A DNA stretch of 64,000 nt from Thermoanaerobaculia bacterium (GTDB lineage: Bacteria; Acidobacteriota; Thermoanaerobaculia; UBA5066), in assembly GCA_963719225.1 (NCBI GenBank), contig CAVRAY010000001.1, forward strand, positions 3,488,001 to 3,552,000. Direction: 5' to 3'. Shown one piece after another: positions 2,726 to 30,250 of this stretch (the stretch's first letter is position 1; each line of letters begins with the position of its first letter). The notes beneath the pieces were generated by a model. It was not told where the DNA came from. It worked only from the letters and a program-made list of their open reading frames with translations, and made no database searches. The position numbers and the translations under genes were made by a program.

Positions 2726-2883
2726 GGTGTCCCGAAGGCAGGCAGAAAAATCTACCCAGTTCTGGCGATGGCCTGGGCGACCGGCCGGGAATAGGGTAAG
2801 CGTCAGTCAATCGCAGAAACAACTCTGAATCCAGCCTTGGGGCTCTCGGAGCAGTGCCACCCCTCGGAAACCGGGAGGCAAAC

Positions 2884-7313: not shown

Positions 7314-10300
7314 GTGCGCTTGCGCTGGTGGGAGAACAGATATCAGGAAACTAGCCCTGGTCGGGGTGAAGGTGTGACTATAAACACGGGCTTCCGCTTC
7401 CGTCAGCGGTCCTTCATAGCTGTCGCGAGGCGTCGCTGGGTTCTGTCTTTCGGTCTGGCGCCGGTCCTGCTACTAGCGACCCTTGCCCTGAACTGCTCTA
7501 CCGATCTGGCCCGGGTAAGGCCCTACAGCGATTTGTCCTTGAAGCCCGCCTCCCTTCACGAGGGGCACCAGCCCGCAGCTTCCGCCTCGGAGAAGAAAAT
7601 CGCCGTGACGCGAGTTCTCGAGCGGATGCCGATCTACTTCATCGAGAATCGCGGCCAGCTCGATTCACGGGTGGCCTACTACGTCCAGCGTGGGGACACG
7701 GCTCTGTACTTCACTGCCGACGGGATGACCCTCGTGCAAACCGACCAGAGGCATGGAGAAAACGGCCCGGAGGGCGGGCTGGAGAAGACATCGCTCGTTC
7801 GGAACGGCATGCCGACACCGGAGGCAGGGAGCCGATGGGCTGTCAAGCTCGATTTCGTTGGAGCAAACCCGAGCCCCAGTATCCAAGCAAAGGATCCAAC
7901 ACCCGCCATCGTCAGCTACTTCAAGGGCCCGAAGGAGAACTGGAAGGCGGCCCTCTCAACGTATGGCTCGATCATCTACTCCGATCTCTGGCCGGGAATT
8001 GATCTGGTCTATTCCGGAACGGCCAACCGCCTCAAGTACACCTTCCTTGTGAAGCCTGGGGCAGATTCGGCGCAGGTTAGGCTGGCGTATCGAGGCGTCC
8101 ATGGGATCCGGTTGAACGAAGCCGGGCAGCTAGAAATCGAGACACCTGCGGGACGTCTCCAGGACGACAAGCCGTATGCGTTTCAGGAGATCGATGGGCG
8201 CCGCGTCCAAATTGACGCGGCATATTCGCTCGATCCGTTGGGAGCCGCAGCGTCATACCGATATGGATTCGCAATCGGGTCCTATGACCGCGCTAAGCCT
8301 CTGGTGCTCGACCCGACAGTGCTCGTTTATTGCGGGTACATTGGTGGTAGCGGTTTCGATCAAGGCCGCAGTATCGCGGTGGACACTTCGGGCAACGCCT
8401 ATGTCACGGGACGAACCGGCTCCTCCGAGCCCACGTTCCCCGTGACCGTCGGGCCGGACCTGACCTACAACGGCGGCGGCGTAAACGGCAACACTGATGC
8501 CTTCGTGGCGAAGGTCAACGCCGCCGGCACCGCCCTCGTCTACTGTGGCTACATCGGCGGCGGCGACTATGATGAAGGCTACGGCATCGCGGTGGATAGC
8601 TCGGGCAACGCCTATGTCACGGGAGTAACCTCCTCGACCGAGGCCACGTTTCCCGTGACCGTCGGGCCGGGCCTGACCTTCGGCGGCGGCACCTATGACG
8701 CTTTCGTGGCGAAGGTCAACGCCGCCGGCACCGCCCTCGTCTACTGCGGCTACATCGGCGGCAGCGGAGGCGAGCAAGGTAACGGCATCGCGGTGGACAG
8801 CTCGGGCAACGCCTATGTCACGGGGCAAACCAGCTCCGCCGAGGACACGTTCCCAGTGACTGTGGGGCCCGACCTTACCTTCAACGGGCCCTTCGGCGGC
8901 GGTTCGGACGCCTTCGTAGCGAAAGTCAACGCCGCCGGCACCGCGCTCGTCTACTGCGGCTACATCGGCGGCGGCTATGCGGATGCTGGCTACGGTATCG
9001 CGGTGGACAGTTCGGACAACGCTTATCTCACGGGATTGACCCAATCGCCCGAGACCTTTCCCGGCCTATTCCCCGTAACCGTGGGGCCGGCCCTGACCTA
9101 CAGCGGCGGCGAGGATGCCTTCGTAGCGAAGGTCAACGCCGCCGGCACCGCCCTCGTCTACTGCGGCTATATCGGCGGCACGGGCTTGGATCAAGGCACG
9201 GGAATCGCGGTGGGCTCTTCAGGCAACGCCTATGTCATTGGGACCACTTCCTCCACCGAGACAACATTCCCCGTGACCGTCGGACCCAACCCGACGTACA
9301 ACGGCGGCCCCCATGACACTTTCCTAGCAAAGGTCAACGCAGCCGGCACCGCGCTCGATTACTGCGGTTACATCGGCGGCAGCGGCAACGATTTTGGCCG
9401 GGGTATCGCGGTTGACAGTTTGGGTAACGCCTATGCCACGGGGGAAACCACCTCCACCGAGGCCACGTTCCCAGTAATGGTCGGGCCGGACCTAACCTTC
9501 AATGGCCCTCTCGGCGGATCCAACGCCTTCGTCGCAAAGGTCAACGCCGCCGGCACTACGTTGGTGTACTGCGGCTATATCGGCGGCAGCAAAGGTGGCG
9601 AGAGTGGCCAGGGCATCGCGGTGGACAGTTCGGGCAATGCATATGTCACGGGATCCGCCGATTCCGATGAGACAACGTTCCCGGTGACCGCCGGACCAGA
9701 CCTGACCTTTGACGGCGGCAGCGACGCCTTCGTTGCGAAAATCGGGACCAGCTGTTTGCCTCGGGCCGGTCCTTTGGCATCGAACAACGGCCCGATCTGC
9801 GCAGGTCACACGCTGCAGCTTGCGGCGTCGCCAATTTCGGGGGCGACATATAACTGGACGGGGCCAAACAGCTTCACTTCGAACCTTCAGAACCCGACGA
9901 TTCTGGCCGCCACGTCGGCCGCGGCCGGAACTTACAGCGTCACGGCGACAGTCGGCGGCTGCACGTCGCCGGCCGGGACGACTGCGGCCGTCGTCAACCC
10001 GACCCCGGCTACTCCGGTCATCACGGCGCCAGCGAACACGGCCGGGGGGACGAGAGGTTTGTCAGCGTCGGTGGTTCCACACGCGGGGGGCAGCTGGTTC
10101 TGGACGGTCCAGAACGGCACCGTCACGGCGGGGCAGGGGACGAGCCAGATTACCTTCACCGCGGGGAGCATCCCCGAACCACTGACTCTCTCGGTCATGG
10201 ACACGAATGCCTCAGGATGTGTGAGCGCACCGGGAATCGCCTCCGTTGCGATTGATCCGTTCGGACCGCCGTACCTCTTCTACACGGTAACGCCGTGTCG

Positions 10301-10646
10301 AGTCCTTGACACCAGAAATCCGGCCGGTCCACTGGGCGGCCCGGCATTGCAGGCCGGCGCGATGCGGACGTTCGACGTGGCAACGTCCCGATGTGGTATC
10401 CCGTCCGGGGCGGTCGCAATCTCGGCGAACCTGACCGTCACGAATGTAGGTTCTCTCGGTGAACTCTTGGCCTTCGCGTCGGACGCGGCGCCGACAAACG
10501 CGAGCAGCCTCAGCTTCCGGCCGGGGCGCACCCGCGCTAACAACGCTATGGTTTCTCTCTCGAAATCGAGTGCGACGTTCTCCATCTTCAACAACTCCGC
10601 GTCCACTGTAGATTTCATCCTCGATGTGAACGGGTACTTCCAGTAG
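7314..10646 (+). CDS. SBBP beta-propeller surface protein with Ig-like modules and conserved C-terminal PCRxxDTR...DVNGYF domain (start uncertain, alternative GTG 7374)
   Basis: Same FIENRGQ domain and 7 SBBP repeats as 2884..6525; WTGPNSFTSNLQNP Ig-like module; C-terminal domain shared with two other genes. Confidence 0.88.
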   Translation: MRLRWWENRYQETSPGRGEGVTINTGFRFRQRSFIAVARRRWVLSFGLAPVLLLATLALNCSTDLARVRPYSDLSLKPASLHEGHQPAASASEKKIAVTRVLERMPIYFIENRGQLDSRVAYYVQRGDTALYFTADGMTLVQTDQRHGENGPEGGLEKTSLVRNGMPTPEAGSRWAVKLDFVGANPSPSIQAKDPTPAIVSYFKGPKENWKAALSTYGSIIYSDLWPGIDLVYSGTANRLKYTFLVKPGADSAQVRLAYRGVHGIRLNEAGQLEIETPAGRLQDDKPYAFQEIDGRRVQIDAAYSLDPLGAAASYRYGFAIGSYDRAKPLVLDPTVLVYCGYIGGSGFDQGRSIAVDTSGNAYVTGRTGSSEPTFPVTVGPDLTYNGGGVNGNTDAFVAKVNAAGTALVYCGYIGGGDYDEGYGIAVDSSGNAYVTGVTSSTEATFPVTVGPGLTFGGGTYDAFVAKVNAAGTALVYCGYIGGSGGEQGNGIAVDSSGNAYVTGQTSSAEDTFPVTVGPDLTFNGPFGGGSDAFVAKVNAAGTALVYCGYIGGGYADAGYGIAVDSSDNAYLTGLTQSPETFPGLFPVTVGPALTYSGGEDAFVAKVNAAGTALVYCGYIGGTGLDQGTGIAVGSSGNAYVIGTTSSTETTFPVTVGPNPTYNGGPHDTFLAKVNAAGTALDYCGYIGGSGNDFGRGIAVDSLGNAYATGETTSTEATFPVMVGPDLTFNGPLGGSNAFVAKVNAAGTTLVYCGYIGGSKGGESGQGIAVDSSGNAYVTGSADSDETTFPVTAGPDLTFDGGSDAFVAKIGTSCLPRAGPLASNNGPICAGHTLQLAASPISGATYNWTGPNSFTSNLQNPTILAATSAAAGTYSVTATVGGCTSPAGTTAAVVNPTPATPVITAPANTAGGTRGLSASVVPHAGGSWFWTVQNGTVTAGQGTSQITFTAGSIPEPLTLSVMDTNASGCVSAPGIASVAIDPFGPPYLFYTVTPCRVLDTRNPAGPLGGPALQAGAMRTFDVATSRCGIPSGAVAISANLTVTNVGSLGELLAFASDAAPTNASSLSFRPGRTRANNAMVSLSKSSATFSIFNNSASTVDFILDVNGYFQ

Positions 10647-10707
10647 GAGGCCATTCAGCATACCTGCGCGCACTCTGTGCCCTGAGGCATCCGCTATCCT
10701 CCTGCCC

Positions 10708-12585
10708 ATGCGAATCCTCGCCGGCGTCGCGCTCGGCGCGGTTCTCTTTTCGGGGCCGCTTTCCGGGCAGGACCTGTCGTCCGAGGAACCGGCCCCTCCT
10801 CACGTCAAGCAGGAGGTGGCGGTCGTCGCGACGCGCCTCGACATGGCGCCCGTCTCCGCCACGGTCCGCGTGGTCACGCGGGAGGAAATCGCCGCGATGC
10901 CGGGAGTCCGCGCGCTTTCCGACGTGCTCCAGACCGTACTCGGGCTCGACGTGAGAAGGCGCGGCGCGAACGGAACGCAGGCCGACATCGGGATTCGCGG
11001 CTCGGATTTCAACGGCGCGCTGCTCCTGGTGGACGGCCAGCCCATGACGGATCCCCAGAGCGGCCACCTCTCGGCGGACTTCGACGTCCCCCTCGGAGCC
11101 ATCGAGCGGATCGAGGTCCTGGCGGGGGGCGGCTCGGCGCTGTGGGGCTCGAACGCGATCGGCGGCGTCGTGAACATCGTGACGCGCGGCGCGGATCTCG
11201 GACGGTCGAACATGCAATGCGAGACGCGCTACTCGCACGGCAGCGACTCTCTCGACGCCGGCGGCTATCGCGCCGCGATGAAGATCGGAGAGTCCTTCTC
11301 GGCGGCGGTCGACTGGCAGCGGACCGAGAACGCGGGCTTCCGCGACGACACCGAGTCCGCGTCGGGCCTGCTGCGCGTCTCCGGGCGATGGGAGACGGAC
11401 GCAGGGCCCGTCACGCTCGGTCTCGGCTACGCGAACCGGAACTTCGGCGCTTACGCGTTCTACGGGACCGCGTTCCCGAACCAGCAGGAGTCGACGCGCA
11501 CGCGCACGGCCACGCTTTCCTCGACTCTCGCCCTCGGCGGCTGGACCGTGAGCCCCTCGGCTTCCGTGCGCGCGCATCACGACGACTTCGTCCTTGAACG
11601 CAGCAACCCCTCGTTCTACGAGAACCTTCACGACACGGTCAGCTCCGTGCTGCGCGCGGCGGCGCGACACGCGCTTCTCGAAGGGACGTTCGCGTTCGGG
11701 GCGGAGGCCGCACGCGAGACGATCTCCTCCACGAACCTCGGGAGCCACGGCCGCGATCACGGCGCGCTCTTCGCCGAGTTCGCGCGCGCCTGGATCCCCG
11801 GCTCCTCCTCGGCGGCGGGCTTGCGTGCGGGGCTGCGCGCCGATCTCTACGAAGGGTACGGGTCGCGGCTCTCCCCTTACGCGGGAGTCGCCTGGGACGC
11901 CGCCCGGAACCTCACCTTCCGGGCGTCGTTCGCGTCGAGCTTCCGCGTGCCGTCGTTCACGGAGCTCTACTACGTCGACCCGCAGAACATTGGCAACCCG
12001 AACCTGAGGCCCGAGAAGGCGTGGCAGGTCGAGGGCGGGGCGGTGCTCGCCGTGGGAGCCGCCACGCTCGATGCCGCGTACTTCCACCGGCGGGCGACCG
12101 ACCTGATCGACTTCGTCCGATCGTCCCCCGACGAGCCCTGGAGGTCGCGGAACGTGCGGGACGCCGTCGTTGACGGCATCGAGGCCTCGGCCGACTGGAC
12201 CCGGAGGCGGCCCGCGTTTCTGACCCAACTTCGTGTTCAGGCTGCGTACACGTTCGTCGATCTCGCGAGTCTCTCGGAGGCGGCCGACGGAGCGACACAG
12301 GGCAAGTACGTGCTCGACCCGCTCCATGCGAAATGGGACCTCCTCGCGGGCATCGCCCTGCCGCTCCGGATCTCCCTGGCCTCGCGCCTCTCTTACTTTT
12401 CACGGCCGAGCTTCGCCGACGGTGTCTGGCTCCTCTCCGCGCGCCTCTCGTGGCAGGCCTTCCAGGGGCGCATCCTCGAGTTCTTCGTGGACGGGGAGAA
12501 CCTCGGCAATGTCCGCTACGAAGAGGTCGCCTTCGTCCCCCTGCCGCGGCGCACGGTCGCCGGGGGGTTCAATCTGACCTGGTGA
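10708..12585 (+). CDS. TonB-dependent receptor (BtuB-like)
   Basis: Signal peptide; plug motifs IRG..LLVDG and IERIEVLAGGGSALWGSNAIGGVVNIVT; GNPNLRPEK; C-terminal W. Confidence 0.92.
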   Translation: MRILAGVALGAVLFSGPLSGQDLSSEEPAPPHVKQEVAVVATRLDMAPVSATVRVVTREEIAAMPGVRALSDVLQTVLGLDVRRRGANGTQADIGIRGSDFNGALLLVDGQPMTDPQSGHLSADFDVPLGAIERIEVLAGGGSALWGSNAIGGVVNIVTRGADLGRSNMQCETRYSHGSDSLDAGGYRAAMKIGESFSAAVDWQRTENAGFRDDTESASGLLRVSGRWETDAGPVTLGLGYANRNFGAYAFYGTAFPNQQESTRTRTATLSSTLALGGWTVSPSASVRAHHDDFVLERSNPSFYENLHDTVSSVLRAAARHALLEGTFAFGAEAARETISSTNLGSHGRDHGALFAEFARAWIPGSSSAAGLRAGLRADLYEGYGSRLSPYAGVAWDAARNLTFRASFASSFRVPSFTELYYVDPQNIGNPNLRPEKAWQVEGGAVLAVGAATLDAAYFHRRATDLIDFVRSSPDEPWRSRNVRDAVVDGIEASADWTRRRPAFLTQLRVQAAYTFVDLASLSEAADGATQGKYVLDPLHAKWDLLAGIALPLRISLASRLSYFSRPSFADGVWLLSARLSWQAFQGRILEFFVDGENLGNVRYEEVAFVPLPRRTVAGGFNLTW

Positions 12586-12628
12586 AAGCGAGTACACTCG
12601 CCAGCGAGACTCGCTCTCGAGTTCGCCC

Positions 12629-13312
12629 ATGCCGACCATTCTTCTTCTCGAGGGCGCGCGGAGGCGCCTGCCCGAGGGGCCGTCCTGGCTCCGGCGGAGC
12701 GACTGGAAGCTCATCGACGTCGCCACCGCGGAAGGCACCGTGCGCGCCGTCGCCGATCACCGCCCGTCCCTCCTGATCGTGGACCTCGAGCAGGATCCCG
12801 AAGGCGCTCTCGAGACCGTCCGCGCGGTTTGCGCCGACGCCGCCGCGCGCGCGGTCCCGCTCCTCGTCCTGGCGCCGGCGGAGCGCGCCGAAGCCGTCCG
12901 CGCCGCGGGAGCGGGCCACGTCTTTCCGGAAAGCGCACCCCCGGAAGAAGTGCTCGCCGAGGTCCGCCGTCTCCTCGCCCTTCTCGAGCGCCGGGCGCCG
13001 CGCGTGAAAGTCGAGGCGTCCGTCGCGATCTGGCGCGACGGGCATCCGACCGAGGGGCGCGTCACCGACATCTCCTCGTCGGGGTTCTTCACGGCGACGA
13101 GCGAGCCTCAACCGGTCGGCGCGCGCCTCGAGATCAGCTTCAAGCTCCCCCACGACCGGTCCGGCAAGACCGTGACGGGCGAGGTCATCGTCGTGCGGCG
13201 CGCCGAAGGGCCGGAGTCCGGGTTCGGTGCCCGTTTCTTCCGGCTGCCGCAGACCGCGAGCCAGCTCATCGACGACTACCTCGCACCGCGAACGAAACAG
13301 TCGAAGATCTAG
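12629..13312 (+). CDS. Receiver-like domain fused to PilZ (c-di-GMP-binding) domain
   Basis: PSLLIVD receiver-like core; RRAPR (RxxxR) and DISSSG (DxSxxG) PilZ motifs. Confidence 0.8.
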   Translation: MPTILLLEGARRRLPEGPSWLRRSDWKLIDVATAEGTVRAVADHRPSLLIVDLEQDPEGALETVRAVCADAAARAVPLLVLAPAERAEAVRAAGAGHVFPESAPPEEVLAEVRRLLALLERRAPRVKVEASVAIWRDGHPTEGRVTDISSSGFFTATSEPQPVGARLEISFKLPHDRSGKTVTGEVIVVRRAEGPESGFGARFFRLPQTASQLIDDYLAPRTKQSKI

Positions 13313-13755
13313 AGCGGACGCGCCGGCGGGACGGCCGACAGGTCGACGAGGCGGATGCCGACGCGGTCGGCGTAATCGTGGATGCGCGGCTCCCTATAGA
13401 ACTCGCCGAAGTAAACGGCGACGAGCCCCGCGTTCGCGATGAGCTTGAAGCAGTGCCAGCAGGGCGAGGCCGTCGTGTAGATCTCGCCACCCTCGATGCG
13501 GACACCGTTCATCGCCGCCTGGAGGATCGCGTTCGCCTCGGCGTGGACGGTCGCGATGCAGTGCCCGTCCTCCATGAGGCAGCCCACCTCGTCGCAGTGC
13601 GGCAGGCCCCGAAGCGAGCCGTTGTACCCCGTCGACAGAAGCCTCTTGTCGCGCACGATCACCGCGCCGACGTGCTTGCGCGGGCACGTGGCCCGGCTCG
13701 CCACCTCTCCGGCGATGTTCATGAAGTAGCGGTGCCAATCGACGCGCTCCGTCAT
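13309..13755 (-). CDS. dCMP/cytidylate deaminase family protein
   Basis: RATCPRKHVGAVIV, GYNG, HAEANA, PCWHC zinc motifs; own ATG at 13755. Confidence 0.92.
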   Translation of the reverse strand: MTERVDWHRYFMNIAGEVASRATCPRKHVGAVIVRDKRLLSTGYNGSLRGLPHCDEVGCLMEDGHCIATVHAEANAILQAAMNGVRIEGGEIYTTASPCWHCFKLIANAGLVAVYFGEFYREPRIHDYADRVGIRLVDLSAVPPARPL

Positions 13756-13760
13756 GTCGC

Positions 13761-15570
13761 TCACCAGCCGACCGGCTTCCCCTTGTTCTGCTCGTCCAGC
13801 CACTTCTGAAGCGGGGCGAAGTAGTCGCGGATCGCGCCGGCGTCCATCTGCTTCTGTCCCGTCAGCGTCGCGAGGGCTTCGGGCCACGGGCGGCTCGTGC
13901 CCATCGACAGCATCGCGTTCAGGCGGCTTCCCGCCTCCTTGTTCCCGTAGATCGAGCAGCGGTTGAGCGGGCCCTTGCAGCCCGCGATCCCCGCGAGCGC
14001 GCGATGAAACTGGAACTGGAGGATGTCCGCCAGAAAGTAGCGCATGTAGGGCACGTTGCCGGCCACGTGGATACTTCGCGCCCGGGTCGAAATCCTCCTC
14101 GCTCCGCGCCACCGGCGGCGCGATTCCCTGATATTTCCGCCGCAGCTCCCACCACGCCTCGTTGTATTTCTCCGGCGGAATCTGCCCGGAGAAGACCTTC
14201 CAGCGCCACTGGTCGATCACGAGCCCGAACGGCAGGAACGCGATCTTCTCGAGCGCCCTGTCGAGAAGAAGACCGATGTCCTTCGACGCGTCCGGCGCCT
14301 TCTCGAGGAGGCCGAGCTTCACGAGGTATTCCGGCGTGACGGAGAGCGCGATCGTGTCGCCGACGGCCTCGTGGAAGCCGTCGTTGGCGCTGTCGCGGAA
14401 GAGGTACGGCTGCTCGTTGTACGCGCGCTGGTAAAAATTGTGGCCGAGCTCGTGATGGATCGTGCTGAAGTCCTCGGCCGTGGGCTCGATGCACATCTTG
14501 AGGCGCAGGTCGTTGAGGTAGTCGATGTCCCAGGCGCTCGCGTGACAGACGACCTCGCGGTCCCGCGGCTTCACGAAGAGCGACCGCTTCCAGAACGTCT
14601 CGGGCAGCGGCGCGAAGCCGAGAGACGTAAAGAACCCCTCGCCGTACTTCACCATCTGCTGGTCGTTCGTCTTGCGGCCCTTGAGGATCTGCGTCAGGTC
14701 GTATCCGGGGTCCGCGCCGGCCGGCGCCACGAGCGGGTAGATGTTTCCCCACTCCTGCGCCCACATGTTGCCGAGGAGATGCGCGGGGATCGGACCGCTC
14801 GCACTGACGCGATCGCCGTACTTCTCGCGCAGCTTCGCGCGAACGTAGGCATGGAGGGAGAGGTAGAGCGGCTTCACCTGCTCCCAGAGGCGGTCGAGCT
14901 CCGCCTCGAAGGCTTCCGGCGGCATGTCGTACTTGGACCGCCACATCGCGCCGGTGTCGGCGAAGCCCAGCTCTTTCGCGCCCTTGTTCGCGAGCGCGAC
15001 GTACGTGATGAAGTCCTTCCGCATGGGACGCGAGATGGAGTGCCAGCCCGTCCAGGCGTCGAGGAGCTCGTCGTAGTTGCGACTCGACGCGAGGACCTTC
15101 GAGAGGTCGCCGAGGTCGCGGCACTCCTCCTTCCCGTCCTTTCCCTTGCGGCAGGATTTCCCCTTGCCGTAGAGGCCCTCCATCCGGGAGGCGATGCGCG
15201 TCAGCTGCTCGCTCTCCTTCGGGTCCGAGGGCGTCGCGAGCGTGAGCCCGTTCTTCAGGAGCCGCATCTTGCGGGCGAGCGCTTCCGGCAGCGCCAGCTT
15301 GTCGAACCGCACGGACTGTTTCGCGAGCTCGACGGCCGCGTTGATCGCGCGCTCGTCGGCCTTCGCCGCGAGAAGCTCGGTGTCCTCGGTGATGAAGTTG
15401 ATCTTCACCCAGTCCGCGCGCCCCGCCTCGACGAAGAGCTGCAGCAGGCGCCCTTCGGCGTTCGCCAGGAACGTCTCCGCCTCGACCGCAGTCGGGGGCG
15501 GCGCGGGCTGGGCCGCGGCGGGAAAGACGACGGACGCGAGGAGCAGGACGAACGTGCGGAAGCGCTTCAT
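13761..15570 (-). pseudogene. Peptidase M2 (ACE-like peptidyl-dipeptidase) with a single +1 frameshift near 14070 (real lesion or sequencing error)
   Basis: [30 protein letters not shown]; the continuation [17 protein letters not shown] lies in another frame (13761..14066). Confidence 0.85.
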
Positions 15571-15617
15571 GACGCGATCGTAGCAAGCCCCCGCCGGGAC
15601 TCAGTAAGATGCGGCAA

Positions 15618-16841
15618 ATGGACAACCGCCGCGTCGTCGTGACGGGCCTCGGGGCCGTGACGTCTCTCGGGAACGACCTCGCGTCGACCTGGGACTCTCT
15701 CGTCGCCGGGCGCTGCGGCATCGGCCCCATCACGCTCTTCGATGCCTCGGCCTTCCGCACGCAGCTCGCGGCGGAGGTCAAGGAGCTGCCCGGGGGCTTC
15801 GACCCCGCGCTCCGGCGCCGCCTCTCCCGCACGGACGTCATCGGCCTCACGGCGGCGGCCGAAGCGCTCGCCGACGCCGGCCTCGATCTGGGCCGCGAGG
15901 ATCCATCGCGCATCGGGGTCGTCCTCGGCGGGGGCGTGTCCGGGCTTCTCGACAGCGAGAACTATTTCCGCGATCTCGTCACGCGGGGGCCCCGCCGGGC
16001 ACGTCCCACGCAGGTCCTCAATCACCCGCCCGACCAGACGACCGACCGCATCGCCGAGCGCTGGGGCTTCCTCGGCCCGCGCTCGACGATCACGACCGCG
16101 TGCTCGTCCTCGGCGACTTCGCTCGGCTATGCCGCCGACCTCATCCGCCACGGTTTCTGCGACGTCGTCGTGACGGGCGGCGCCGACACGTTCGCGAGAC
16201 TGACGCACGGCGGCTTCAACGCGCTTCGCTCCGTCGACCCCGATCCCTGCCGCCCGTTCGACAGGCGCCGCAAGGGGCTTTCGATCGGGGAGGCCGCGGG
16301 CCTTCTCGTCTTCGAGGAGGAAGGCCGCGCGCGCCGCCGGGGAGCGCGGATCCGCGCCCGCTTCCTCGGCTACGGCGTCACGTCCGACGCGCACCACATG
16401 ACGCAGCCCGAGCCGACGGGCGAAGCCGGCGCCCGAACGATCAGCGCGTGCCTCGTGGCCTCCTCCCTGAACCCGGGCGACGTGGACTACGTGAACGCCC
16501 ACGGAACCGCGACCCCGCAGAACGACTCGGCCGAGACGGCGTCGATCAAGCGGGCGCTCGGGCCGCGCGCGCGGGAGATCCCCGTCTCGTCGATCAAGTC
16601 GATGCTCGGCCACTGCCTCTGCTCGGCAGGGGCCATCGAGGCGGTCGCGACCGTCCGCACGATCGAGACCGGCCTCGTGCCGCCCACGATCCACTGGGAA
16701 GAGCCGGACCCCGAGTGCGACCTCGACATCGTCCCGAACACGGCCCGGGAAGCGCGCGTCAGGATCGCGCTCTCGAACTCCTTCGCGTTCGGCGGGAACT
16801 CGACGGTCGTGGCGTTCGGGCAGTTCGAAGGGAGGGTCTAG
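15618..16841 (+). CDS. fabF: Beta-ketoacyl-ACP synthase (FabF-like KS), catalytically intact
   Basis: VVVTGLG, TACSSS, NAHGTAT, KSMLGH, SNSFAFGG. Confidence 0.9.
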   Translation: MDNRRVVVTGLGAVTSLGNDLASTWDSLVAGRCGIGPITLFDASAFRTQLAAEVKELPGGFDPALRRRLSRTDVIGLTAAAEALADAGLDLGREDPSRIGVVLGGGVSGLLDSENYFRDLVTRGPRRARPTQVLNHPPDQTTDRIAERWGFLGPRSTITTACSSSATSLGYAADLIRHGFCDVVVTGGADTFARLTHGGFNALRSVDPDPCRPFDRRRKGLSIGEAAGLLVFEEEGRARRRGARIRARFLGYGVTSDAHHMTQPEPTGEAGARTISACLVASSLNPGDVDYVNAHGTATPQNDSAETASIKRALGPRAREIPVSSIKSMLGHCLCSAGAIEAVATVRTIETGLVPPTIHWEEPDPECDLDIVPNTAREARVRIALSNSFAFGGNSTVVAFGQFEGRV

Positions 16842-16844
16842 GCC

Positions 16845-17285: not shown

Positions 17286-17397
17286 GGAAAACTCCTTTTC
17301 CGCTTTCGCGGGCCGCTTCAGATCGGGCCACCATGTCGCGGCAGAGACCCAGTGTCAACACCGAAAACGATGCCACCGCCCGTGTACGATCCTGTGA

Positions 17398-18965: not shown

Positions 18966-18968
18966 GCT

Positions 18969-20351: not shown

Positions 20352-20392
20352 GACCGGAGTGTATCGGGACTCCGGTCGTGCCGATGCCGCGA

Positions 20393-21562
20393 CTACTGGA
20401 AGAAGCCGTTCACGTCCAGGATCACGTCCACCATTCCCGGCGCGGTGTTCTGGATCCGGATCGTGCCCGAGCCGTCCGTCGCGAGGCGGATCAGCGCATT
20501 GTTGGCGCGCGTCTGGAAGGCGCCGAAGCTGACCGTCGAGGCATTCGTGGGCATGCCGTCCCCCGGGTACGCCAGGAGCGTGCCCGCCGCGAAAGCGTTC
20601 GTCGCCGTCATGTTCACGGAGATCGAGGTGGCGTCCGCCGGGATGCCGCAGGTGCCGGCGACCGTGAACGTACGATCCAGGACGCCTGCCGGCGCGAGTG
20701 AGGGACCGCCGAGGGGCCCGACCGGCCCGCGCGTATCGATGAGGCGGCAGCCCGCCACCGTGTAGAAGAGCACGGCGCTTCCCGAAGGCGCGACCGTCAC
20801 GAGCGCGCTCCCGTGAGACGAGTAGCAGGCCGGCGGATTGGAGACGGTGACCCCGAGGTCGAGGACGCCCGGAGCCCCCGCGGTGAAGGTGATCTGTGAG
20901 GTGCCCTGGCCGGCGGTGATCGTCCCGTTCGCGATCGTCCACGTGATGACGGAGCCGAAGCCGAACAGCAGGCTCGCCGTACGGTTCGGCGAGAAGGCCC
21001 CTACGATCTCCGGCGCGACGATCAGGATCGGCGGGGGCGGCGGCGGGGGCAGGAAGAGGATGTTCACGCTCGCGCTCGCCGTGTTGTTGCTCGCGTCGGG
21101 GTCCATGGGAGAGGCTGCCGCGACGCTCGCCGTGTTCACGATCGTCCCGGGCGACGTCGAGCATTTGACGTCTGCATCGAGCGCGATGGTCGCCGTTGCG
21201 CCCGAAGCGAGGCTCGGGAACGAGATCGTGCGCGCGTTGCCCGCGCCGCCACAGACGCCTCCCCCCGAGGCCGAGCACGAGCTGAAGGCGACCTCGGGAG
21301 GGAGGTTGTCGGTCACGACGACGCTCGCCGCGTCGTCCGGGCCGAGGTTCGTGACCGTCAGCGAGAAGGAAATCGTGGAGCCGATGAACGCGTTCGCCGG
21401 CGCCGTCATGGTCAAGGCGAGGTCGGCCGAGGGAAGCGTCGGAGGGGAGGCGGCAATGGCCGCGGGTTCGCCGAGCCACCCGAAAAGGTCAGCGAAGAGG
21501 ATGGCCGATAGGACGAAGAGGAACCTGTGCGCCCCCGCCCGGAGTTCCGGAGAAGTCGGCAT
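20393..21562 (-). CDS. Secreted DUF11-domain protein with conserved C-terminal CRxxDTR...DVNGFF domain
   Basis: ADLALT..VTNLGPDDAASVVVTDNLP..DPDASNNTAS; poly-Pro linker; shared C-terminal domain. Confidence 0.85.
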   Translation of the reverse strand: MPTSPELRAGAHRFLFVLSAILFADLFGWLGEPAAIAASPPTLPSADLALTMTAPANAFIGSTISFSLTVTNLGPDDAASVVVTDNLPPEVAFSSCSASGGGVCGGAGNARTISFPSLASGATATIALDADVKCSTSPGTIVNTASVAAASPMDPDASNNTASASVNILFLPPPPPPPILIVAPEIVGAFSPNRTASLLFGFGSVITWTIANGTITAGQGTSQITFTAGAPGVLDLGVTVSNPPACYSSHGSALVTVAPSGSAVLFYTVAGCRLIDTRGPVGPLGGPSLAPAGVLDRTFTVAGTCGIPADATSISVNMTATNAFAAGTLLAYPGDGMPTNASTVSFGAFQTRANNALIRLATDGSGTIRIQNTAPGMVDVILDVNGFFQ

Positions 21563-21615
21563 GGGACCTCCGGAATGTAATGTCCGGTTTTTCGCCGACC
21601 TAACAGACTGTCGGG

Positions 21616-23532: not shown

Positions 23533-23688
23533 GGAACGGATCCTCCGCCACTGGGAGACAGTTTCCTGTACAGACACCAGCCTATCACGGCTTGGGGGCT
23601 GTCCGCGCCTCGTCAACACAAATTGAACGAACGAGAGGGTCGGCCCGCAAGGCGCTTAGAATTCCAGGCGGAGGGCTGAGCGCCGCAC

Positions 23689-24675
23689 ATGCCTGTTTCA
23701 CCGCTCGATGGCCCGCCCTTCCGCGGCCGCCACGTCGCCTCGCTGACCCGGATCGTCGACACCGTCCGCTCGGTCCTCGACCCGGACTCGGTCGAGCTGG
23801 AATACCTGTTCGAGCCCTCCGGCCAGCGCTTCCGCTGGCGGGCCCGGCGCAGCCGCGTCTTCACCGCCGGGACGGTCCGCGTGGCCACCCGGCACGCGGC
23901 GACGGCGGAGTCCCTCGCCATCGAGTTCCATCTGACCGGCCTCCTTCGCGGGACCTTCACGCTGCATCGGCGGCCCCGCAGGCCGTGGACGCAGCCCGAG
24001 GTGTTGCGCTTCGAGGTCTTCCGGCCGCTGCTCGCCCAGCTTCTCGAGAGCGCGGCGGCCGCCGACATCCACGCGGCGGCCCGTCGGCGGCTGGAGAGCG
24101 CGGCCGAAGCCGCGTCCACGCCGATCCTTCTCGTCGGGCCGTCCGGCTCGGTCCTCTACGCGAACCGCGCCGCGGCGGCCTTCCTTTCCGCGCGGATCCC
24201 GCTCGTCGTCATTCCGGGCGACGGCCGCGAGACCTCGCTCGCGACCTGGATCGCGCGGCTCGGGGCCGGCGCAGCCGCGGGCGAAAAGAGATGCGCCGTT
24301 CTCGCGGATGGACGCGCGCTCGAAGCTTCCGTCGCGCGCTTCGCCGACGAGGAGGAGGACGACGTCGCCGTCCTCACGCTGAAGGTCCAGTCGGCTTTTT
24401 CCCTCGAGGACGTGCGCGAGCGGCTCGCGACGCGGGGCGTTTCCGGCCGCGAAGCCGACGTCGTGGGCGCCGTCCTCGAAGGACTCCGCAATGCGGAGAT
24501 CGCGCGCCGGCTCTTCATCACGGAGTGGACCGTCAAGGATCACCTCAAACACGTCTTTTCGAAGCTCGGCGTTGGCTCGCGCTCGGGCCTCCTGAAGGCG
24601 CTCGACGCGGCTCCCCGATCCGACGCAAAACCCCAGCCGGTTGAGTCTCAGGGTCGGCGGCACCTCAAAATGTAG
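23689..24675 (+). CDS. LuxR-family regulator with PAS-like central domain
   Basis: VLYANRAA PAS-like motif; SGREADVV..GLRNAEIARRLFITEWTVKDHLKHVFSKLGV. Confidence 0.85.
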   Translation: MPVSPLDGPPFRGRHVASLTRIVDTVRSVLDPDSVELEYLFEPSGQRFRWRARRSRVFTAGTVRVATRHAATAESLAIEFHLTGLLRGTFTLHRRPRRPWTQPEVLRFEVFRPLLAQLLESAAAADIHAAARRRLESAAEAASTPILLVGPSGSVLYANRAAAAFLSARIPLVVIPGDGRETSLATWIARLGAGAAAGEKRCAVLADGRALEASVARFADEEEDDVAVLTLKVQSAFSLEDVRERLATRGVSGREADVVGAVLEGLRNAEIARRLFITEWTVKDHLKHVFSKLGVGSRSGLLKALDAAPRSDAKPQPVESQGRRHLKM

Positions 24676-24694
24676 TGGTAGGCTCTCTGCGCTG

Positions 24695-27600
24695 ATGTTC
24701 CGACTGAAGAGACTCGAGATCCAGGGTTTCAAATCCTTCGTGGACCGGACCTCCGTCACGCTTCCGTCGCGCATCACGGCGATCGTCGGCCCGAACGGCT
24801 CCGGCAAGTCCAACATCTGCGACGCCGTGCAGTGGGTGCTCGGCGAGCAGTCGGCCAAGAGCCTGCGCGGGACGACGATGGAGGACGTCATCTTCAACGG
24901 GGCCGCGCGCCGGCGGCCGCTCGGGATGGCGGAGGTCGCCCTCACGCTCGAGTCGCGCGGCGGCGACCAGTGGGCCGAGACGGGCGGCGAGGTCGTCATC
25001 ACGCGGCGCGTCACGCGCGACGGCGAGAGCGACTACATCCTCAACGGAAAGAGGTCGCGCCTCAAGGACGTCCAGGAGATCCTCCTCGGCACCGGCCTCG
25101 GCGTGCGCGCGTACTCGATCATCGAGCAGCAGAAGATCGACCTGATCCTCTCGACGAAGCCGCAGGATCGCCGCCGCCTCATCGAGGAGGCCGCCGGCGT
25201 CTCGAAATACAAGATCCGCAAGCGTCAGGCCGAGGTGAAGCTCGAGGAGACGCGCGGGAACGTCCTGCGTCTCACCGACATCGTGTCGGAGATCGACCGC
25301 ACGTGCGCTTCGCTGAAGCGGCAGGCCTCGCGCGCCGCGCGCTGGAGAGAGCAGGCCGAGCTCCTCTCGGGGCAGAAGAAGAAGCTCGCGCGTCTGCGCG
25401 CCGACCGCCTGGGGGCGGGCTTCGCGGGCGGTCGGGCGGCCCTCGAGAGCGCGACGGACGCCGAGGCCGCGGCGCTTGCGGACCTCGCCCGCCTCGAAGC
25501 GGAGGTCGTGGAAGCGCGCCGCCTCGCCGACGAGGACGAACGTTCCATGCGCGAGGCGGGAGACGCGCTCTCCCGCGCGAGAGAGACTCTCCTCGCCGCC
25601 GAGGCCGCCGTCCAGGCCGCCGCCCGCGAGGCCGAGGAGGCCGCCGCGCGAAAAGAGCTCCTGGAGGCGCAGCGCCGGGAGTCCGAATCCGATCACAGCC
25701 GCTTCGTCGAGGAGGCCGGCCGCACGGTGAAGGCCCGGGACGAGGCGGAGTCGGCTCTCTCGGAGGCCGCCGCAGCCGCCGCCGCGGCCGCCCAGGCGCT
25801 GGCCGAAGTCTCGGCCCGCGAGGCCGACGTCACGGCGCGACGCGAGACTTCGCGACGCGACCTCCTCTCCGCGGGGGCTCGGGCGGCCGAGGCGACGAAC
25901 CGGGAGCGCGACGCCGCCCTCCTCGTCGACCGCCTCGGTTTCGCGCTCGCGAAGCTCGAGGAGAGAAAGGTGCGGGCGGAATCGCTGGTGGACGAGCGGC
26001 GGACGGCCTCCGCCGAGGCCGGAGCGCTTCTGGCCTCGGCTTCTTCCGGTCTCGACGCGGCGCGCCAGAATCTCGAAAAAGCGAGCCACGGCCGCCGCGC
26101 CGCCGAGGACCGCCTCACGACCCTCAAGGCCGTCCGCGAGGCCCACGTCGCCGCCCTCCATGCGGTGGACGTGCGCGCCGCCGCCCTCGAGACCACCCTT
26201 GCCGCACGCGAAGGCGGAGGCGAGTCCGCGCGCCGCGCGCTCGAGGCGGCGAACGTCGCGCCGAAGGGCGTCCTCGCAGACCACTTCGACGCGGCGGCCG
26301 GTTTCGAAAAAGCCCTGGACGCCGCTCTCGGGGCCGCTCTCGAGGCGCCGGTCCTCGAGACGCGCTCCGCTCTCGACGCCGCGCTCGCCTCCGTGCGCGA
26401 GAAAAAGCTCGGCGCGGCGCGCTTCGTCCACCCTCTGCCCGAGACGCCGTTTCCGCTGAAGCCGAAGGACCCCCGAGTCCTCGCGATCGCGCGCGAGCTC
26501 CTCACCGCGAAGTCGGCGTCGGCGCCGGCTTCCGCCCTGCCCGACGCGGTCGTCGTCGCGAACGTGGACGACGCTCTCGCGCTCGCGGCGCTCCATCCCG
26601 AACGCACGCTCGTGACGAAGGACGGTGTCGTCGTGCGGGGCGCGGTGGTCGAGGCCGCCGGCACCGAAGTTCCCGGAGAGGGTCTCTTCACGGTCCGGCG
26701 CGATCTCGTGAATCTCGCCGCGGAACGGAAAGGCGTCGCGGCGAATTTGGCGGAGGCGGATGCCGAGATCGCCTCCCTGTCCGCACAGGTCGGAACTTTC
26801 GCGGCGACGCTCGACGCCGCGCTCGCCGCCAAAGGGGCCGCCGAGCGCGCGCATTCCGAAGCCGAGGCGAGGAGCGCGGCCGCTCGCACCGAGGAAGAGC
26901 GCGCCGTCGAGGAGCTGCGGGTCCTCGCGGAGGAGGGCGACGCTCTTCGCCAGGATCTCGCGAAGGCTGCCGAAAGCCGGACGGAGGCGGCGCGCCTCGC
27001 GGCCCAGCGGCAATCCGAGATGGCGACCGTGGAACGCACGCTCTCGGAGCTGGAGGCGGCGCTCGATGCCGCGCGCTCTCTGCGCCTCACGGCTGCGGAG
27101 GCCGACGCCGTCGCGCGCAACGGACGCGACATCCTCGTCGAGCGCTCCCGGTCCCTCGCCGCCGCCTCCACGTCGGCCGAGGAGCGCGCCCGCGACGCGG
27201 CGCGCCGTGTCGCGGACCTGGCGGACGCCCTCGTCGAGATCGAGGCTCGGCGCGCCGGGGCTCTCGCCTCCGGAGAGGCAGCGAAGGCGGCGCAGGGCGC
27301 GGCCGCGACCGCCGCCGCCGAGGCCGACCGGCTGCGCGCCGGAACGGACGAGGCGGCGACGACACGGCGCGAGGCGCGCGCCGACGCCGAGGCGCGGGCG
27401 GCCGGCCAGCGCGAGGCCCTCGACGCCGTGCGGCGGACGCGCTTCGAGGCCGAGATCGCCCTCGAGCGCCACAAGGCCGACCAGGACCACCTCGTCGAGA
27501 CGTGCCGGACCGAGTTCGGCTGCCTTCCCGGCGAGCTGCCGGCCTTCGAGATGACCGACGAGGAGGCCGCTCTCCCGTCCGAGGAGCTCGAAGCCGCGCT

Positions 27601-28234
27601 CTCCGAGGACGTCGTCTCCCGTTCCCTGGCCCTCGAGCGGCTCGGCCCCGTCAACCACGCGGCTCTCAAGGAGTACGAAGTCGAGAGCAAAAGGCTCCAG
27701 GAGCTCTCGGCGCAGAAGGCCGATCTCGACGCGTCGCTCGCGCAGATCCTCGAGACGATCCGGACGATCAACACGACCTCGTCCGAGCGCTTCCAGGAAG
27801 CGTTCGCGGCCATCAACTTCAGCTTCGGCCAGGTCTTCCAGCGCCTCTTCCACGGCGGCACCGCCTCGATGCATCTGCTCGACGAGGGGGACCCGCTGGA
27901 TTCCGGCCTCGAGATCATGGCGCAGCCGCCCGGCAAGCGGAACCAGACGATCGGGCTCCTCTCGGGCGGCGAGAAGGCGCTCACGGCCATCGCGCTCCTC
28001 GTCGCGATCTTCAAGTACAAGCCGTCGCCGTTCTGCATCCTCGACGAGGTCGACGCCCCGCTCGACGAGGCGAACATCGACCGCTTCACGTCGCTCCTCG
28101 TGGAGCTCTCCGAGGAGACGCAGTTCGTCCTCATCACGCACAACAAGAGGACGATGGAAACCGCGCAGGCGCTCTACGGCGTCACGCAGGAGGAGCCGGG
28201 GGTATCGAAGCTCGTCAGCGTGAGATTCGACTGA
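24695..28234 (+). CDS. smc: Chromosome segregation protein SMC
   Basis: GFKSF, GPNGSGKSN, long coiled coils with hinge, LSGGEK, LDEVDAPLD, ITHNK. Confidence 0.96.
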   Translation: MFRLKRLEIQGFKSFVDRTSVTLPSRITAIVGPNGSGKSNICDAVQWVLGEQSAKSLRGTTMEDVIFNGAARRRPLGMAEVALTLESRGGDQWAETGGEVVITRRVTRDGESDYILNGKRSRLKDVQEILLGTGLGVRAYSIIEQQKIDLILSTKPQDRRRLIEEAAGVSKYKIRKRQAEVKLEETRGNVLRLTDIVSEIDRTCASLKRQASRAARWREQAELLSGQKKKLARLRADRLGAGFAGGRAALESATDAEAAALADLARLEAEVVEARRLADEDERSMREAGDALSRARETLLAAEAAVQAAAREAEEAAARKELLEAQRRESESDHSRFVEEAGRTVKARDEAESALSEAAAAAAAAAQALAEVSAREADVTARRETSRRDLLSAGARAAEATNRERDAALLVDRLGFALAKLEERKVRAESLVDERRTASAEAGALLASASSGLDAARQNLEKASHGRRAAEDRLTTLKAVREAHVAALHAVDVRAAALETTLAAREGGGESARRALEAANVAPKGVLADHFDAAAGFEKALDAALGAALEAPVLETRSALDAALASVREKKLGAARFVHPLPETPFPLKPKDPRVLAIARELLTAKSASAPASALPDAVVVANVDDALALAALHPERTLVTKDGVVVRGAVVEAAGTEVPGEGLFTVRRDLVNLAAERKGVAANLAEADAEIASLSAQVGTFAATLDAALAAKGAAERAHSEAEARSAAARTEEERAVEELRVLAEEGDALRQDLAKAAESRTEAARLAAQRQSEMATVERTLSELEAALDAARSLRLTAAEADAVARNGRDILVERSRSLAAASTSAEERARDAARRVADLADALVEIEARRAGALASGEAAKAAQGAAATAAAEADRLRAGTDEAATTRREARADAEARAAGQREALDAVRRTRFEAEIALERHKADQDHLVETCRTEFGCLPGELPAFEMTDEEAALPSEELEAALSEDVVSRSLALERLGPVNHAALKEYEVESKRLQELSAQKADLDASLAQILETIRTINTTSSERFQEAFAAINFSFGQVFQRLFHGGTASMHLLDEGDPLDSGLEIMAQPPGKRNQTIGLLSGGEKALTAIALLVAIFKYKPSPFCILDEVDAPLDEANIDRFTSLLVELSEETQFVLITHNKRTMETAQALYGVTQEEPGVSKLVSVRFD

Positions 28235-28286
28235 CGCCGAGCGCCCACAAGGGTTCTCCTCGTTGTCGCGGTGGTAACGTGTCACC

Positions 28287-28481
28287 GTGAAGGTCGTCCC
28301 ACTCGCCCGCGTGCCGAAGGACCAGCGCTGGTTCTATCACCCTGAGATGCAGGCTCGGATTGCTCAGGCTGAACGGAATTTCGCCGAAGGACGTTCGACG
28401 ACAACGAAGACCCTTGAAGAAGCCCGCGCTTTTCTCGATCGCCTCAAGAAGCGACGGGCGGGCGGCAGCAACCTTCGCTGA
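28287..28481 (+). CDS. Small protein resembling the C-terminal half of an AbrB/MazE-type antitoxin
   Basis: VPKDQRWFYHPEMQARIAQAERNFAEGR resembles the 'P.DQ.WFW..EWQ.....A..D...GR' pattern I recall from such proteins; TAACGT 6 nt upstream of GTG. Confidence 0.55.
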   Translation: MKVVPLARVPKDQRWFYHPEMQARIAQAERNFAEGRSTTTKTLEEARAFLDRLKKRRAGGSNLR

Positions 28482-28498
28482 CGGCGACTCGGCTCGGG

Positions 28499-30250
28499 CT
28501 ACTCGAAGAACCCCACGACGTCCACGATCACGTGAACCCCGCCAGCGGGTGCGACCGTCTCGAACCGGACCGTGAACTCCGCGTCCGGGCCCAGCGCGAT
28601 CGTCGCGTTGTTCGCGCGCGTCTGCCCTGCGCGGAAATTGATGACCGTCGCGTCCGGCGCTCCGATGTCCGAGGCATGGATGCGCAGGAGTCCGTTCGAA
28701 GTCGCGTCCGAGACGGTCACGTTCGCGGCAATCGCGCGGGCGGTCGCCGGGATCCCGCAAACGTCCCCAACTGGAAAAAGGCGAGGCGCGTTGGCCACGA
28801 GGGCGGGCCCTCCGAGGAAGCTGGTTGACGCGCGCGTGTCAATGACGCGGCACGGATTGAGCAACGAAAGCGAGGCCGGACGAACAGGCGCGGCGAACGA
28901 GGAGCCGTTCATCGCCCAGAGCTCCGTCCCTGCCGACGGGTCCTTGCCCGCGAAAAGCGTAACGCCGCGATAAGGGAATCCCGGGCCGCTCGCGCCGATG
29001 TCCTGCTGGACGGGAACCGTACCCGATGCCGTCCCGTCGCTCGTCCAGAGGCTCGTCGAGAAGGGAGATGTGTCCTGTGCTATCGAGGCGAGAAGCCGGC
29101 CGTTCGCGACCGTGAGCGACGCGATCGTCGCGTCTTCGCCACCTGTCTTGAAATCATGGAGAAGGACCGTCCCAGGGACGCTGCCGTCGGTGATCCACAG
29201 TTGCTGGGTAGCGCCCACGATGCCGCTGGTCTGGATCGTGAAATAGACGCCCTCCCGCGTTCCCACGCCGGCAGCCAGCGCGGCGACCGAAAACGATTTG
29301 AGAAGAAACGTGCCCGCAACCGTGCCGTCGGTCCGCCACAGGTCCTTCGCATTCGCGAAAAAGAGCACTCCTCCCGCCGAGCCCAGGAACGTCCCTCCAT
29401 CCACGACACCGATGGGCACCGTACCCGCGGCTGTCCCGTCGCTTCGCCAGACATTGCACCCCTTCGAGGCGTCGTCGGCGAGGAACACGAAGATCCTTCC
29501 GAGGCGGCGGGGCGTCGTCCAGCAGGAAACCGGGCCGCTCGACGACAGCGTCTTCAAGGGACCCGTCCCCGAGGCGGTCCCGTCACTGAACCACAGCTCC
29601 GAGATGCCGGCCAGAGACCTCTCGAGGAACGCGACGCCGCTGTTGAAGGCGAGAAGCGGTCCCAATCCATATAAGTCGAAACCTCCAGCGGTGAGCGGAC
29701 GCGTTCCCAGCGCGCTGCCGTCCGTGCGCCACAGCAGGGTCACGCCGGACTGGGATCCGAAGAAGAACACCTGCTCCGCGCTTGCGACGAGGGACCCTCC
29801 GAACGAAATCGGGACGAGGTCAGGCGGCAACGACACTGGAGCCGTGCCGGCCTGCATCCCGTCGCTCGCGAAGAGCTTTGACGCCGCCGGGCACAGTCCG
29901 CAAGGGCCGGCGGGGCCCGGTAAGACCGTACCCTCGAGCCAGAACAGCTTCCGGCTCGTCGCCACCAATAAGGAGAGCGCGCCTTCGGTCGTCTGGAAGA
30001 CGCGCGTGGTTCCGGCCTGCGTTCCGTCGGTTCGCCACACATCGGCGGGGACGTTCATTGCGCCCCTCGGGAACGCGAAGAAGTACGCGCTCCCAAAGAG
30101 CTCCTGAAAGCCGCTCGGGTACGAGCCGGAGGGCCCGGCGCTGATATCCACGAGCCGAGTCGCCGGCTGCGCGGTCGCGCTCGCGGCCAGGAAGAGTGCG
30201 AGGCAGAGAGTCAGGACCGCAAGGTAGTCGCTGCTTACGTTTCGGAACAC
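28499..30250 (-). CDS. Secreted ELWxxDGT-repeat protein with conserved C-terminal PCRxxDTR...DVVGFF domain
   Basis: Signal peptide; ~9 (L/V)WxxDG(T/S) repeats; shared C-terminal domain. Confidence 0.88.
   Translation of the reverse strand: MFRNVSSDYLAVLTLCLALFLAASATAQPATRLVDISAGPSGSYPSGFQELFGSAYFFAFPRGAMNVPADVWRTDGTQAGTTRVFQTTEGALSLLVATSRKLFWLEGTVLPGPAGPCGLCPAASKLFASDGMQAGTAPVSLPPDLVPISFGGSLVASAEQVFFFGSQSGVTLLWRTDGSALGTRPLTAGGFDLYGLGPLLAFNSGVAFLERSLAGISELWFSDGTASGTGPLKTLSSSGPVSCWTTPRRLGRIFVFLADDASKGCNVWRSDGTAAGTVPIGVVDGGTFLGSAGGVLFFANAKDLWRTDGTVAGTFLLKSFSVAALAAGVGTREGVYFTIQTSGIVGATQQLWITDGSVPGTVLLHDFKTGGEDATIASLTVANGRLLASIAQDTSPFSTSLWTSDGTASGTVPVQQDIGASGPGFPYRGVTLFAGKDPSAGTELWAMNGSSFAAPVRPASLSLLNPCRVIDTRASTSFLGGPALVANAPRLFPVGDVCGIPATARAIAANVTVSDATSNGLLRIHASDIGAPDATVINFRAGQTRANNATIALGPDAEFTVRFETVAPAGGVHVIVDVVGFFE

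Follow-up and report, generated by a model that had tools for sequence, protein, structure and literature searches.

A jelly-roll module shared by exported proteins of a Thermoanaerobaculia bacterium may be an envelope anchor that alternates with SLH triplets

Why would three exported proteins with different passenger domains all end in the same sequence? The question is posed by a 64,000-nt stretch of the genome of a Thermoanaerobaculia bacterium (assembly GCA_963719225.1, contig CAVRAY010000001.1, positions 3,488,001 to 3,552,000), here called the window. All three proteins have one common C-terminal module of ~125 aa, at 43–53% pairwise identity by BLASTP (E 1e-15 to 1e-40), and a hydrophobic N-terminal segment, judged from hydropathy and by eye, in agreement with an initial annotation of this DNA. 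That annotation proposed a tag for surface attachment or secretion. From comparisons of sequences and predicted structures, we consider it likely that the module works as an envelope anchor in the manner of SLH and CWB2, while belonging to neither family. On balance, we think that this jelly-roll module would be a non-covalent, CsaB-independent anchor, probably acting as a three-module unit of one cargo and two helper modules. The genes and modules concerned are:

7314..10646, + strand: gene for a 1110-aa exported protein with a hydrophobic N-terminal segment, DUF7948, SBBP propeller repeats, PKD-like spacers and a C-terminal cargo-type module
10014..10226, + strand: PKD_6-like spacer (residues 901–971), common to the DUF11 protein (Pfam PF19408, E 1.5e-5; BLASTP)
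10275..10646, + strand: module copy 1 (residues 988–1110), cargo type, that is, with Arg in the TRANN motif (alignment, BLASTP)
20393..21562, – strand: gene for a 389-aa exported protein with a signal-like N-terminus, DUF11, a Pro-rich linker, a PKD-like spacer and a C-terminal cargo-type module
20393..20770, – strand: module copy 2 (residues 265–389), the copy used for folding (8-stranded beta-sandwich; predicted local distance difference test, pLDDT, 96.7; predicted template modelling score, pTM, 0.89)
28499..30250, – strand: gene for a 583-aa exported ELWxxDGT-repeat protein with a C-terminal cargo-type module (list of open reading frames, family libraries)
28499..28873, – strand: module copy 3 (residues 460–583), cargo type (alignment, BLASTP)

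The passengers do differ (DUF7948 plus SBBP, DUF11 and ELWxxDGT repeats), but 'unrelated', as they had been called, is too strong, because the SBBP and DUF11 proteins share the PKD_6-like spacer ahead of the module.

Homologues of these proteins in SLH-rich relatives point to attachment. Among 118 distinct SLH proteins from such relatives, a homologue bearing an SLH triplet (at least 50% of the passenger, E<1e-30) was found for 8 of the 24 module proteins of this genome that have a passenger, versus 5 of 1973 controls (the other genome proteins of 300–1500 aa; one of these five positives is a frameshifted module gene). The window SBBP protein is one of the eight: its homologue in genome G021, 32% identical, ends in three SLH motifs. 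A DUF1800 protein bears the module at its N-terminal end in this genome; its G021 homologue (46% identity) has three SLH motifs close to that same end, and in both genomes DUF1501 lies beside it. In the same-genus pair G023/G082, proteins that match at 56% over 818 aa and at 58% over 342 aa carry the module and an SLH triplet, respectively. No protein examined in this comparison bears both, and Pfam searches confirmed the swap. This position-keeping swap gives the module family a testable function, and it favors the surface-attachment, lineage-expanded half of the tag first proposed.

Genomes, like proteins, tend to have one or the other. The genome studied here (4.75 Mb, 97% complete, 6.2% contaminated) contains no SLH match. 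In a set of 31 close relatives, 13–90 SLH matches occur in four of the five genomes that lack the module, and the fifth (G015) has neither tag; the module-rich ones have 0–1 SLH matches each. Of the 37 genomes of the order in a 151-genome class sample, 20 are module-only (at least 4 modules), 14 SLH-only (at least 5 motifs), 2 have both and 1 has neither. Contrasts of this kind are seen within two genera (g5, G023/G082; g7, G133/G094) and two families (f1 and f3).

SLH binding needs ketal-pyruvate on the wall polymer (PMC6081394), and csaB-like genes follow SLH rather than the module. A csaB-like PF04230 match at E<=1e-24 occurs in 24 of 25 SLH-rich versus 2 of 29 module-only genomes; the genome under study has no PF04230 match at all. 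The genus g12 repeats the pattern, with a csaB-like gene in the two genomes that have both tags and none in the module-only one. For the one csaB-like protein tested, the TIGR03609 score was 193 bits, below the cut-off of 213. G019 (locus L236) counts in these tallies as one module-only, helper-positive genome, and nothing claimed here depends on it by itself. These data suggest that one diderm lineage switches between two anchoring chemistries. S-layers in Acidobacteriota have been called ambiguous (bioRxiv 10.1101/2024.05.28.596244), and in the main texts of the open-access literature we found no description of the large SLH/csaB-like systems of this lineage.

Several features of these SLH systems were noted in passing. 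The 118 SLH proteins have one motif in 22 cases and three in 87. SLH-rich genomes contain tandem arrays of ~220–290-aa secreted proteins beside the csaB-like gene (for example L083, G082:C1:660001-680000), each with a single C-terminal SLH motif; these are possibly homotrimers. At L082:14879-19999, L089:15085-17778 and L097:9655-13512, proteins of 900–1700 aa in these diderm genomes join the csaB-like domain to GT2/GT4 glycosyltransferase (and methyltransferase) domains.

How widely is the module used within this genome? A profile built from the three window copies gave 35 matches, or 32 loci once three frameshift-split pairs were merged, 20 of them on the window's contig. The module had been described as always lying at the extreme C-terminus; this is true of the window, but across the genome 28 loci are C-terminal, 2 are N-terminal (the DUF1800 protein beside DUF1501, and a collagen fibre) and 2 are stand-alone (signal plus module only). 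Among the cargoes are M11 and M12 metallopeptidases, Vgb-like, FG-GAP and PD40 propellers, beta-helices and Ig-like arrays. By a crude test, N-terminal hydrophobicity is positive for 18 of 27 module genes versus 1126 of 3314 genes overall, and several of the negative module genes are truncated start calls or frameshifts. Thus, the module accompanies export without being confined to the C-terminal end.

Three loci of this genome stand apart from the rest. At L274:2564-3250 (G000:C1:38563-39249, – strand), a module lacking its first strands comes after a signal and an N-terminal fragment that resembles a peptidase, with a short shared motif at the junction; a deletion or misassembly is possible. 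A short signal-bearing frame with only the first third of the module (L276:2057-2320, G000:C1:2876056-2876319) is a probable pseudogene. The protein of G000:C1:816772-818460 has a C-terminal motif, which we take to be IPTL-type, that comprises a hydrophobic helix and a basic tail, and its G023 homologue bears the module.

The module matches no described family that we searched. Pfam gave no match at E<=1 on the three window modules and none on single or double helpers (see below), NCBIfam gave only weak unrelated rows far below cut-off, and PHROG, the phage records and a PDB sequence search (E<=10) gave none. ESM Atlas matches fall in unnamed clusters only, mostly of Actinomycetota and Acidobacteriota, and the main texts of the open-access literature yielded no description of the module. 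Copy 2, modelled with AlphaFold2 from 106 sequences, is predicted to be an 8-stranded beta-sandwich of jelly-roll type (pLDDT 96.7, pTM 0.89) that lacks any helix of 4 or more residues and ends in a beta-strand. The best structural match is the fibre tip Bd2133 of Bdellovibrio (Foldseek E 1.8e-4, template modelling score 0.56; VIA Z 9.3, rmsd 2.8, 105 of 121 residues aligned; sequence identity 10–12%, 10% in the VIA alignment), followed by an entry at Z 7.5, 1.8 lower. Repeats of a natural triplet match the same tip at Z 8.9. Carbohydrate-binding modules (CBM35/36/22), BclA, C1q and virus coats score Z 6–7, the level of common jelly rolls. By sequence, a match to a carbohydrate-binding module, which the initial annotation had named as an outcome that would speak against its tag, is not indicated: CBM6/22/35/36 have no Pfam match here. 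Their structural resemblance is within the common jelly-roll range.

The family is not restricted to one lineage: clustering at 50% identity leaves 37,072 representatives, and members occur in both Acidobacteriota and Actinomycetota. In a phylum sample, at least 10 of 251 genomes have the module (best 16 candidates scored per genome). A striking property of multi-copy members is a rule of three. In the 247 top-scoring long homologues, adjacent runs number 256 of three and 5 of six, next to 10 of two, 2 of four, 1 of five and 1 of one, in lists ranked by total score that under-sample one- and two-copy proteins, which weakens the rule. The module is C-terminal in 236 of these 247 proteins, which end a few residues from the last strand. 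Named triplet carriers are Bryobacterales, other Terriglobia and Streptomyces (16 plasmid records). The natural triplet P0204 folds with pTM 0.92, which points to one rigid body. Two Cys had been thought invariant: each window copy has two, and they are kept in 27 aligned genome copies, but two Streptomyces proteins, whose third repeat is divergent, have none. Hence, the Cys pair was rejected as the functional core.

The module also occurs at the N-terminal end of collagen and other fibre-like proteins (L212-L216, L218 and L219 in G025, G027, G101 and G141; L034:7695-8903). These fibre-borne copies lack the cargo Arg and are kept even in SLH-rich genomes.

If three modules make a unit, where do single-module cargoes find the other two? 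Stand-alone module genes form a distinct subfamily, here termed helpers, that consist of a signal and one or two modules. The consensus of cargo modules is G-x-T-R-A-N-N and that of helpers G-E-(P)-A-I-A-N-G; in-chain triplets of Bryobacterales and fibre-base copies have neither. In a quick tree, a single clade (SH-aLRT 97) takes in 14 of 15 single helpers together with the four modules of two double helpers; the fifteenth single helper, from G133, falls with a divergent lineage. A helper (helper profile, at least 153 bits) was detected in 31 of 39 genomes with at least 4 modules, versus 1 of 25 with at most 2. The lone exception, SLH-rich G082, possesses a single cargo gene, and the helper lies directly behind it; in the other SLH-rich genomes inspected, the module is confined to the N-terminus of collagen fibres. 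The helper lies behind a co-oriented module gene in 26 of the 30 best loci (in two of them with a short reading frame between).

The double helpers and fused triplets bear on stoichiometry. In G083, a signal plus two helper-type modules is encoded directly behind a one-module cargo gene, and this arrangement occurs twice. A homologue search with this double helper listed 119 new proteins: 75 with a signal and one module, 13 with a signal and exactly two (the query and its paralogue among them), 2 with a signal and three, and 29 others. Scanning metagenomes with the single double-helper query gave no close double helper; when an alignment served as query, one truncated relative came up, located behind a single-module gene (L280). 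Among 286 in-chain triplets, the cargo motif is in repeat 1 of 21, repeat 2 of 1 and repeat 3 of 2. Repeats 2 and 3 lean toward the helper type in 18 of the 21 cargo-first triplets versus 9 of the 265 others, and repeat 1 of the cargo-first triplets leans slightly toward cargo (median +7 bits, versus +38 for 36 single cargo modules from other genomes). One cargo plus two helper modules per unit is the simplest reading, and we give it about an even chance of being correct.

What might such a unit bind? The helper and several cargo genes cluster with an ABC-2 (ATP-binding cassette) exporter pair, GT2/GT4 transferases, an epimerase and GT-C-like genes, a neighborhood that suggests an exported envelope glycan as the ligand. 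In G160, a cluster of SLH, csaB-like and UDP-GlcNAc 2-epimerase genes adjoins the same exporter/helper cassette, and in G082 the exporter pair stands beside the SLH cluster. A GT-C-like gene follows the helper in 14 of 30 loci. Its close orthologues are found in 11 of 56 genomes, all of them module-rich, and in 0 of 23 SLH-only genomes. As a universal partner, this GT-C-like neighbor was rejected, being missing from 20 of 31 module-rich genomes. Both helper genes of the genome under study are on contig C2, where two mirror-image paralogous clusters (G000:C2:5300-38300 and C2:760000-801500) contain exporter, glycosyltransferase, helper, cargo and smpB- and lpxC-like genes. The lpxC-like genes are named from their sequence, and we take the host to belong to a diderm lineage. 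Genes beyond about 801 kb on this contig look unrelated. The gene order around the helper genes on C2 recurs in G001, G004, G012, G013 and G014.

Taken together, the proposed mechanism would run as follows. Cargo and helper, each with a hydrophobic N-terminus, would be exported by a Sec-type route. The working unit would be three modules, in keeping with the tandem triplets of most multi-copy homologues and with their predicted compactness. Modules of the cargo type, with Arg in TRANN, would then co-assemble 1:2 with those of the helper type (GEPAIANG motif, own clade), and the trimer would bind an envelope glycan with no need for pyruvylation by CsaB. This putative glycan is plausibly the product of the exporter/glycosyltransferase locus that holds the helper gene. 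The anchored proteins could reside in the periplasm or on the outer surface. If the 1+2 assembly is right, the anchor would be heteromeric, controlled at one point, and could serve as a two-part display tag ready for use. On a more tentative reading, a single helper gene would permit the whole cargo set to be anchored, and lineages would switch wholesale between this system and SLH/CsaB.

A number of observations weigh against this interpretation. The swap was seen for a minority of cargoes: 16 of 24 passengers have no SLH-tailed homologue in the partial SLH sample, and ELWxxDGT and SBBP homologues in G022, G025 and G026 end with neither module nor SLH. In the window itself, an SBBP paralogue (2854-6525, + strand) lacks the module. 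By genus and family labels, rather than by a tree, the exclusion amounts to about four to five switches, and related genomes are not independent. It is weaker class-wide, with 34 module-rich, 31 SLH-rich and 2 both versus 7 expected, and 88 of 151 class genomes have neither (151 genomes sampled; best 28 and best 43 candidates scored per genome). Some PF04230 match is present in 10 of 29 module-only genomes. The helper falls below threshold in 8 of 39 module-rich genomes, three of which have other short stand-alone reading frames, and the double helper is rare, with a close copy in 1 of 401 class genomes. At 50% identity, the 21 cargo-first triplets collapse to 4 groups (17+2+1+1). The GT-C-like neighbor is present in only 11 of 31 module-rich genomes, leaving no universal ligand gene identified. 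Finally, the mirror-image clusters suggest that one of the two may be a contaminant, and contig C2, which carries both helper genes, may be partly contaminant and is probably contaminated or chimeric.

The same evidence was used to judge three other explanations. The module could mediate docking between proteins, with helpers building a lattice or scaffold on the cell into which cargo modules plug, as in dockerin/cohesin pairs or S-layers. This fits a helper clade that is conserved, separately secreted and found with cargo, and jelly-roll folds do build capsid and appendage lattices (Ena3A and plant virus coats are among the structural matches). Yet the helpers have no other domain for cell retention (no Pfam match) and would therefore still need a further binding partner; the in-chain triplets of Bryobacterales and Streptomyces look self-sufficient, and fused triplets suggest a closed 1:2 unit. 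We regard docking as unlikely. Slightly less likely again is a sorting signal for an outer-membrane translocon, akin to the type IX secretion system's (T9SS) C-terminal domain (CTD), with the helper as adaptor or chaperone. The C-terminal bias (28 of 32 genome copies, 236 of 247 long homologues) is what such a signal predicts, and the genome has two secretin-like genes, both below the GspD cut-off. But N-terminal, stand-alone and duplicated-triplet placements are hard to reconcile with it, the presence of the module in monoderm Streptomyces argues against an outer-membrane translocon, and the module is interchangeable with SLH, a binding module. Nor is there a CTD family match; the T9SS profile PF14349 matched nothing in the genome, and likewise nothing in 14 controls. 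For the same placements and the same monoderm hosts, the secretion or sorting half of the tag proposed initially is weakened.

An outward-facing adhesin or lectin head, or a mere trimerization cap, for foreign surfaces would be in line with the best fold match, the Bd2133 tip (Z 9.3), and with the CBM35/36/22 matches behind it (Z 6–7), as well as with the module's occurrence on collagen fibres even in SLH-rich genomes. On those fibres, however, the module is N-terminal, right after the signal, and a head of this kind, like the Bd2133 tip or a CBM, gives no reason for the SLH/csaB exclusion or for swaps that keep position. Moreover, in the portion of PMC10769870 that treats glycan arrays, binding is reported for Bd2439, not for Bd2133. 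This seems to us the least probable of the three explanations.

Some further observations concern the window and its proteins. The hydrophobic segment of the SBBP protein is at about residues 42–60, and could be an uncleaved anchor. Its module-less paralogue is 66% identical over 737 aa and continues into a Vgb-like propeller and a long Pro/Thr-rich tail; the two are a natural control pair. At L048, L049, L050, L055, L058 and L063 (G022, G025 and G026), the module or SLH is replaced by short Pro-rich, Arg-containing tails, perhaps a further C-terminal tag. At 13309-15570 (– strand), a reading frame that we take, from its motifs, to encode an M2 (ACE-like) metallopeptidase runs into what is presumably dCMP-deaminase-like sequence. 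The join is apparently a frameshift, and the assembly has many frameshift-like breaks.

We return to the envelope-anchor reading to compare it with known systems. T9SS CTD, PEP-CTERM and dockerin are likewise shared tags on unrelated exported proteins. Unlike the T9SS CTD, the module has no Pfam or NCBIfam match, takes N-terminal, stand-alone and tandem forms and is also found in monoderms. It differs from PEP-CTERM/exosortase signals in being a 125-aa soluble sandwich without transmembrane segment or basic tail, and from dockerin in having no Pfam match, no helices and no duplicated Ca-binding loops. In the Bd2133 fibre tip (PDB 8OK3, 8OND), a homotrimeric beta-sandwich has a pocket at the trimer interface (PMC10769870). 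The module is predicted to have this same fold, but Bd2133 is the distal tip of a beta-helical fibre, whereas on fibres the module is N-terminal, and it has no PDB sequence match.

The closest parallels would be among three-repeat wall anchors. SLH triplets (PF00395) bind pyruvylated secondary cell-wall polymer, as in Paenibacillus alvei SpaA and Bacillus anthracis Sap (PMC6081394). Like these, the module occurs at either end of varied exported proteins in many copies per genome, has genes near glycan loci and takes the same position on homologous proteins; it also comes in threes within in-chain triplets, and single-copy proteins would reach a threefold unit through helpers. It differs in lacking a PF00395 match (profile or TRAE and GIIxG motifs), in its predicted all-beta jelly roll versus the three-helix bundle (spindle fold) of SLH, in hosts that mostly have no strong csaB-like gene and in its probable completion by a separate helper protein. 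Single-SLH homotrimers are known from OmpM/SlpA of diderm Terrabacteria, OmpM being held by a coiled coil and barrel (PMC10628300). There too the anchor comes as three repeats per chain in some proteins and one per chain in others, but OmpM has three identical chains, whereas here varied one-copy cargoes would have the other two modules supplied by the helper clade. The sections of that article on OmpM-type anchors do not describe a dedicated filler subunit (PMC10628300). CWB2 triplets (PF04122) of Clostridioides difficile bind PS-II (PMC6081394) and are, like the proposed anchor, CsaB-independent three-repeat wall anchors; the module differs from them in having no Pfam match (cargo, single or double helper), a different predicted fold and a diderm host. 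New here, as judged from open-access main texts, are the SLH swap, the finding that module and csaB-like genes tend to exclude each other in a diderm lineage, and the subfamily of helpers. The family is very large and unnamed in the versions of Pfam, NCBIfam and PHROG that we searched. More tentatively, the module may represent a third widespread anchor class beside SLH and CWB2, a jelly-roll trimer that this lineage has split into a plug-in system. Within that possible scheme, and with the same reserve, some 30 exported proteins would each carry one third of the anchor and the helper would supply two thirds.

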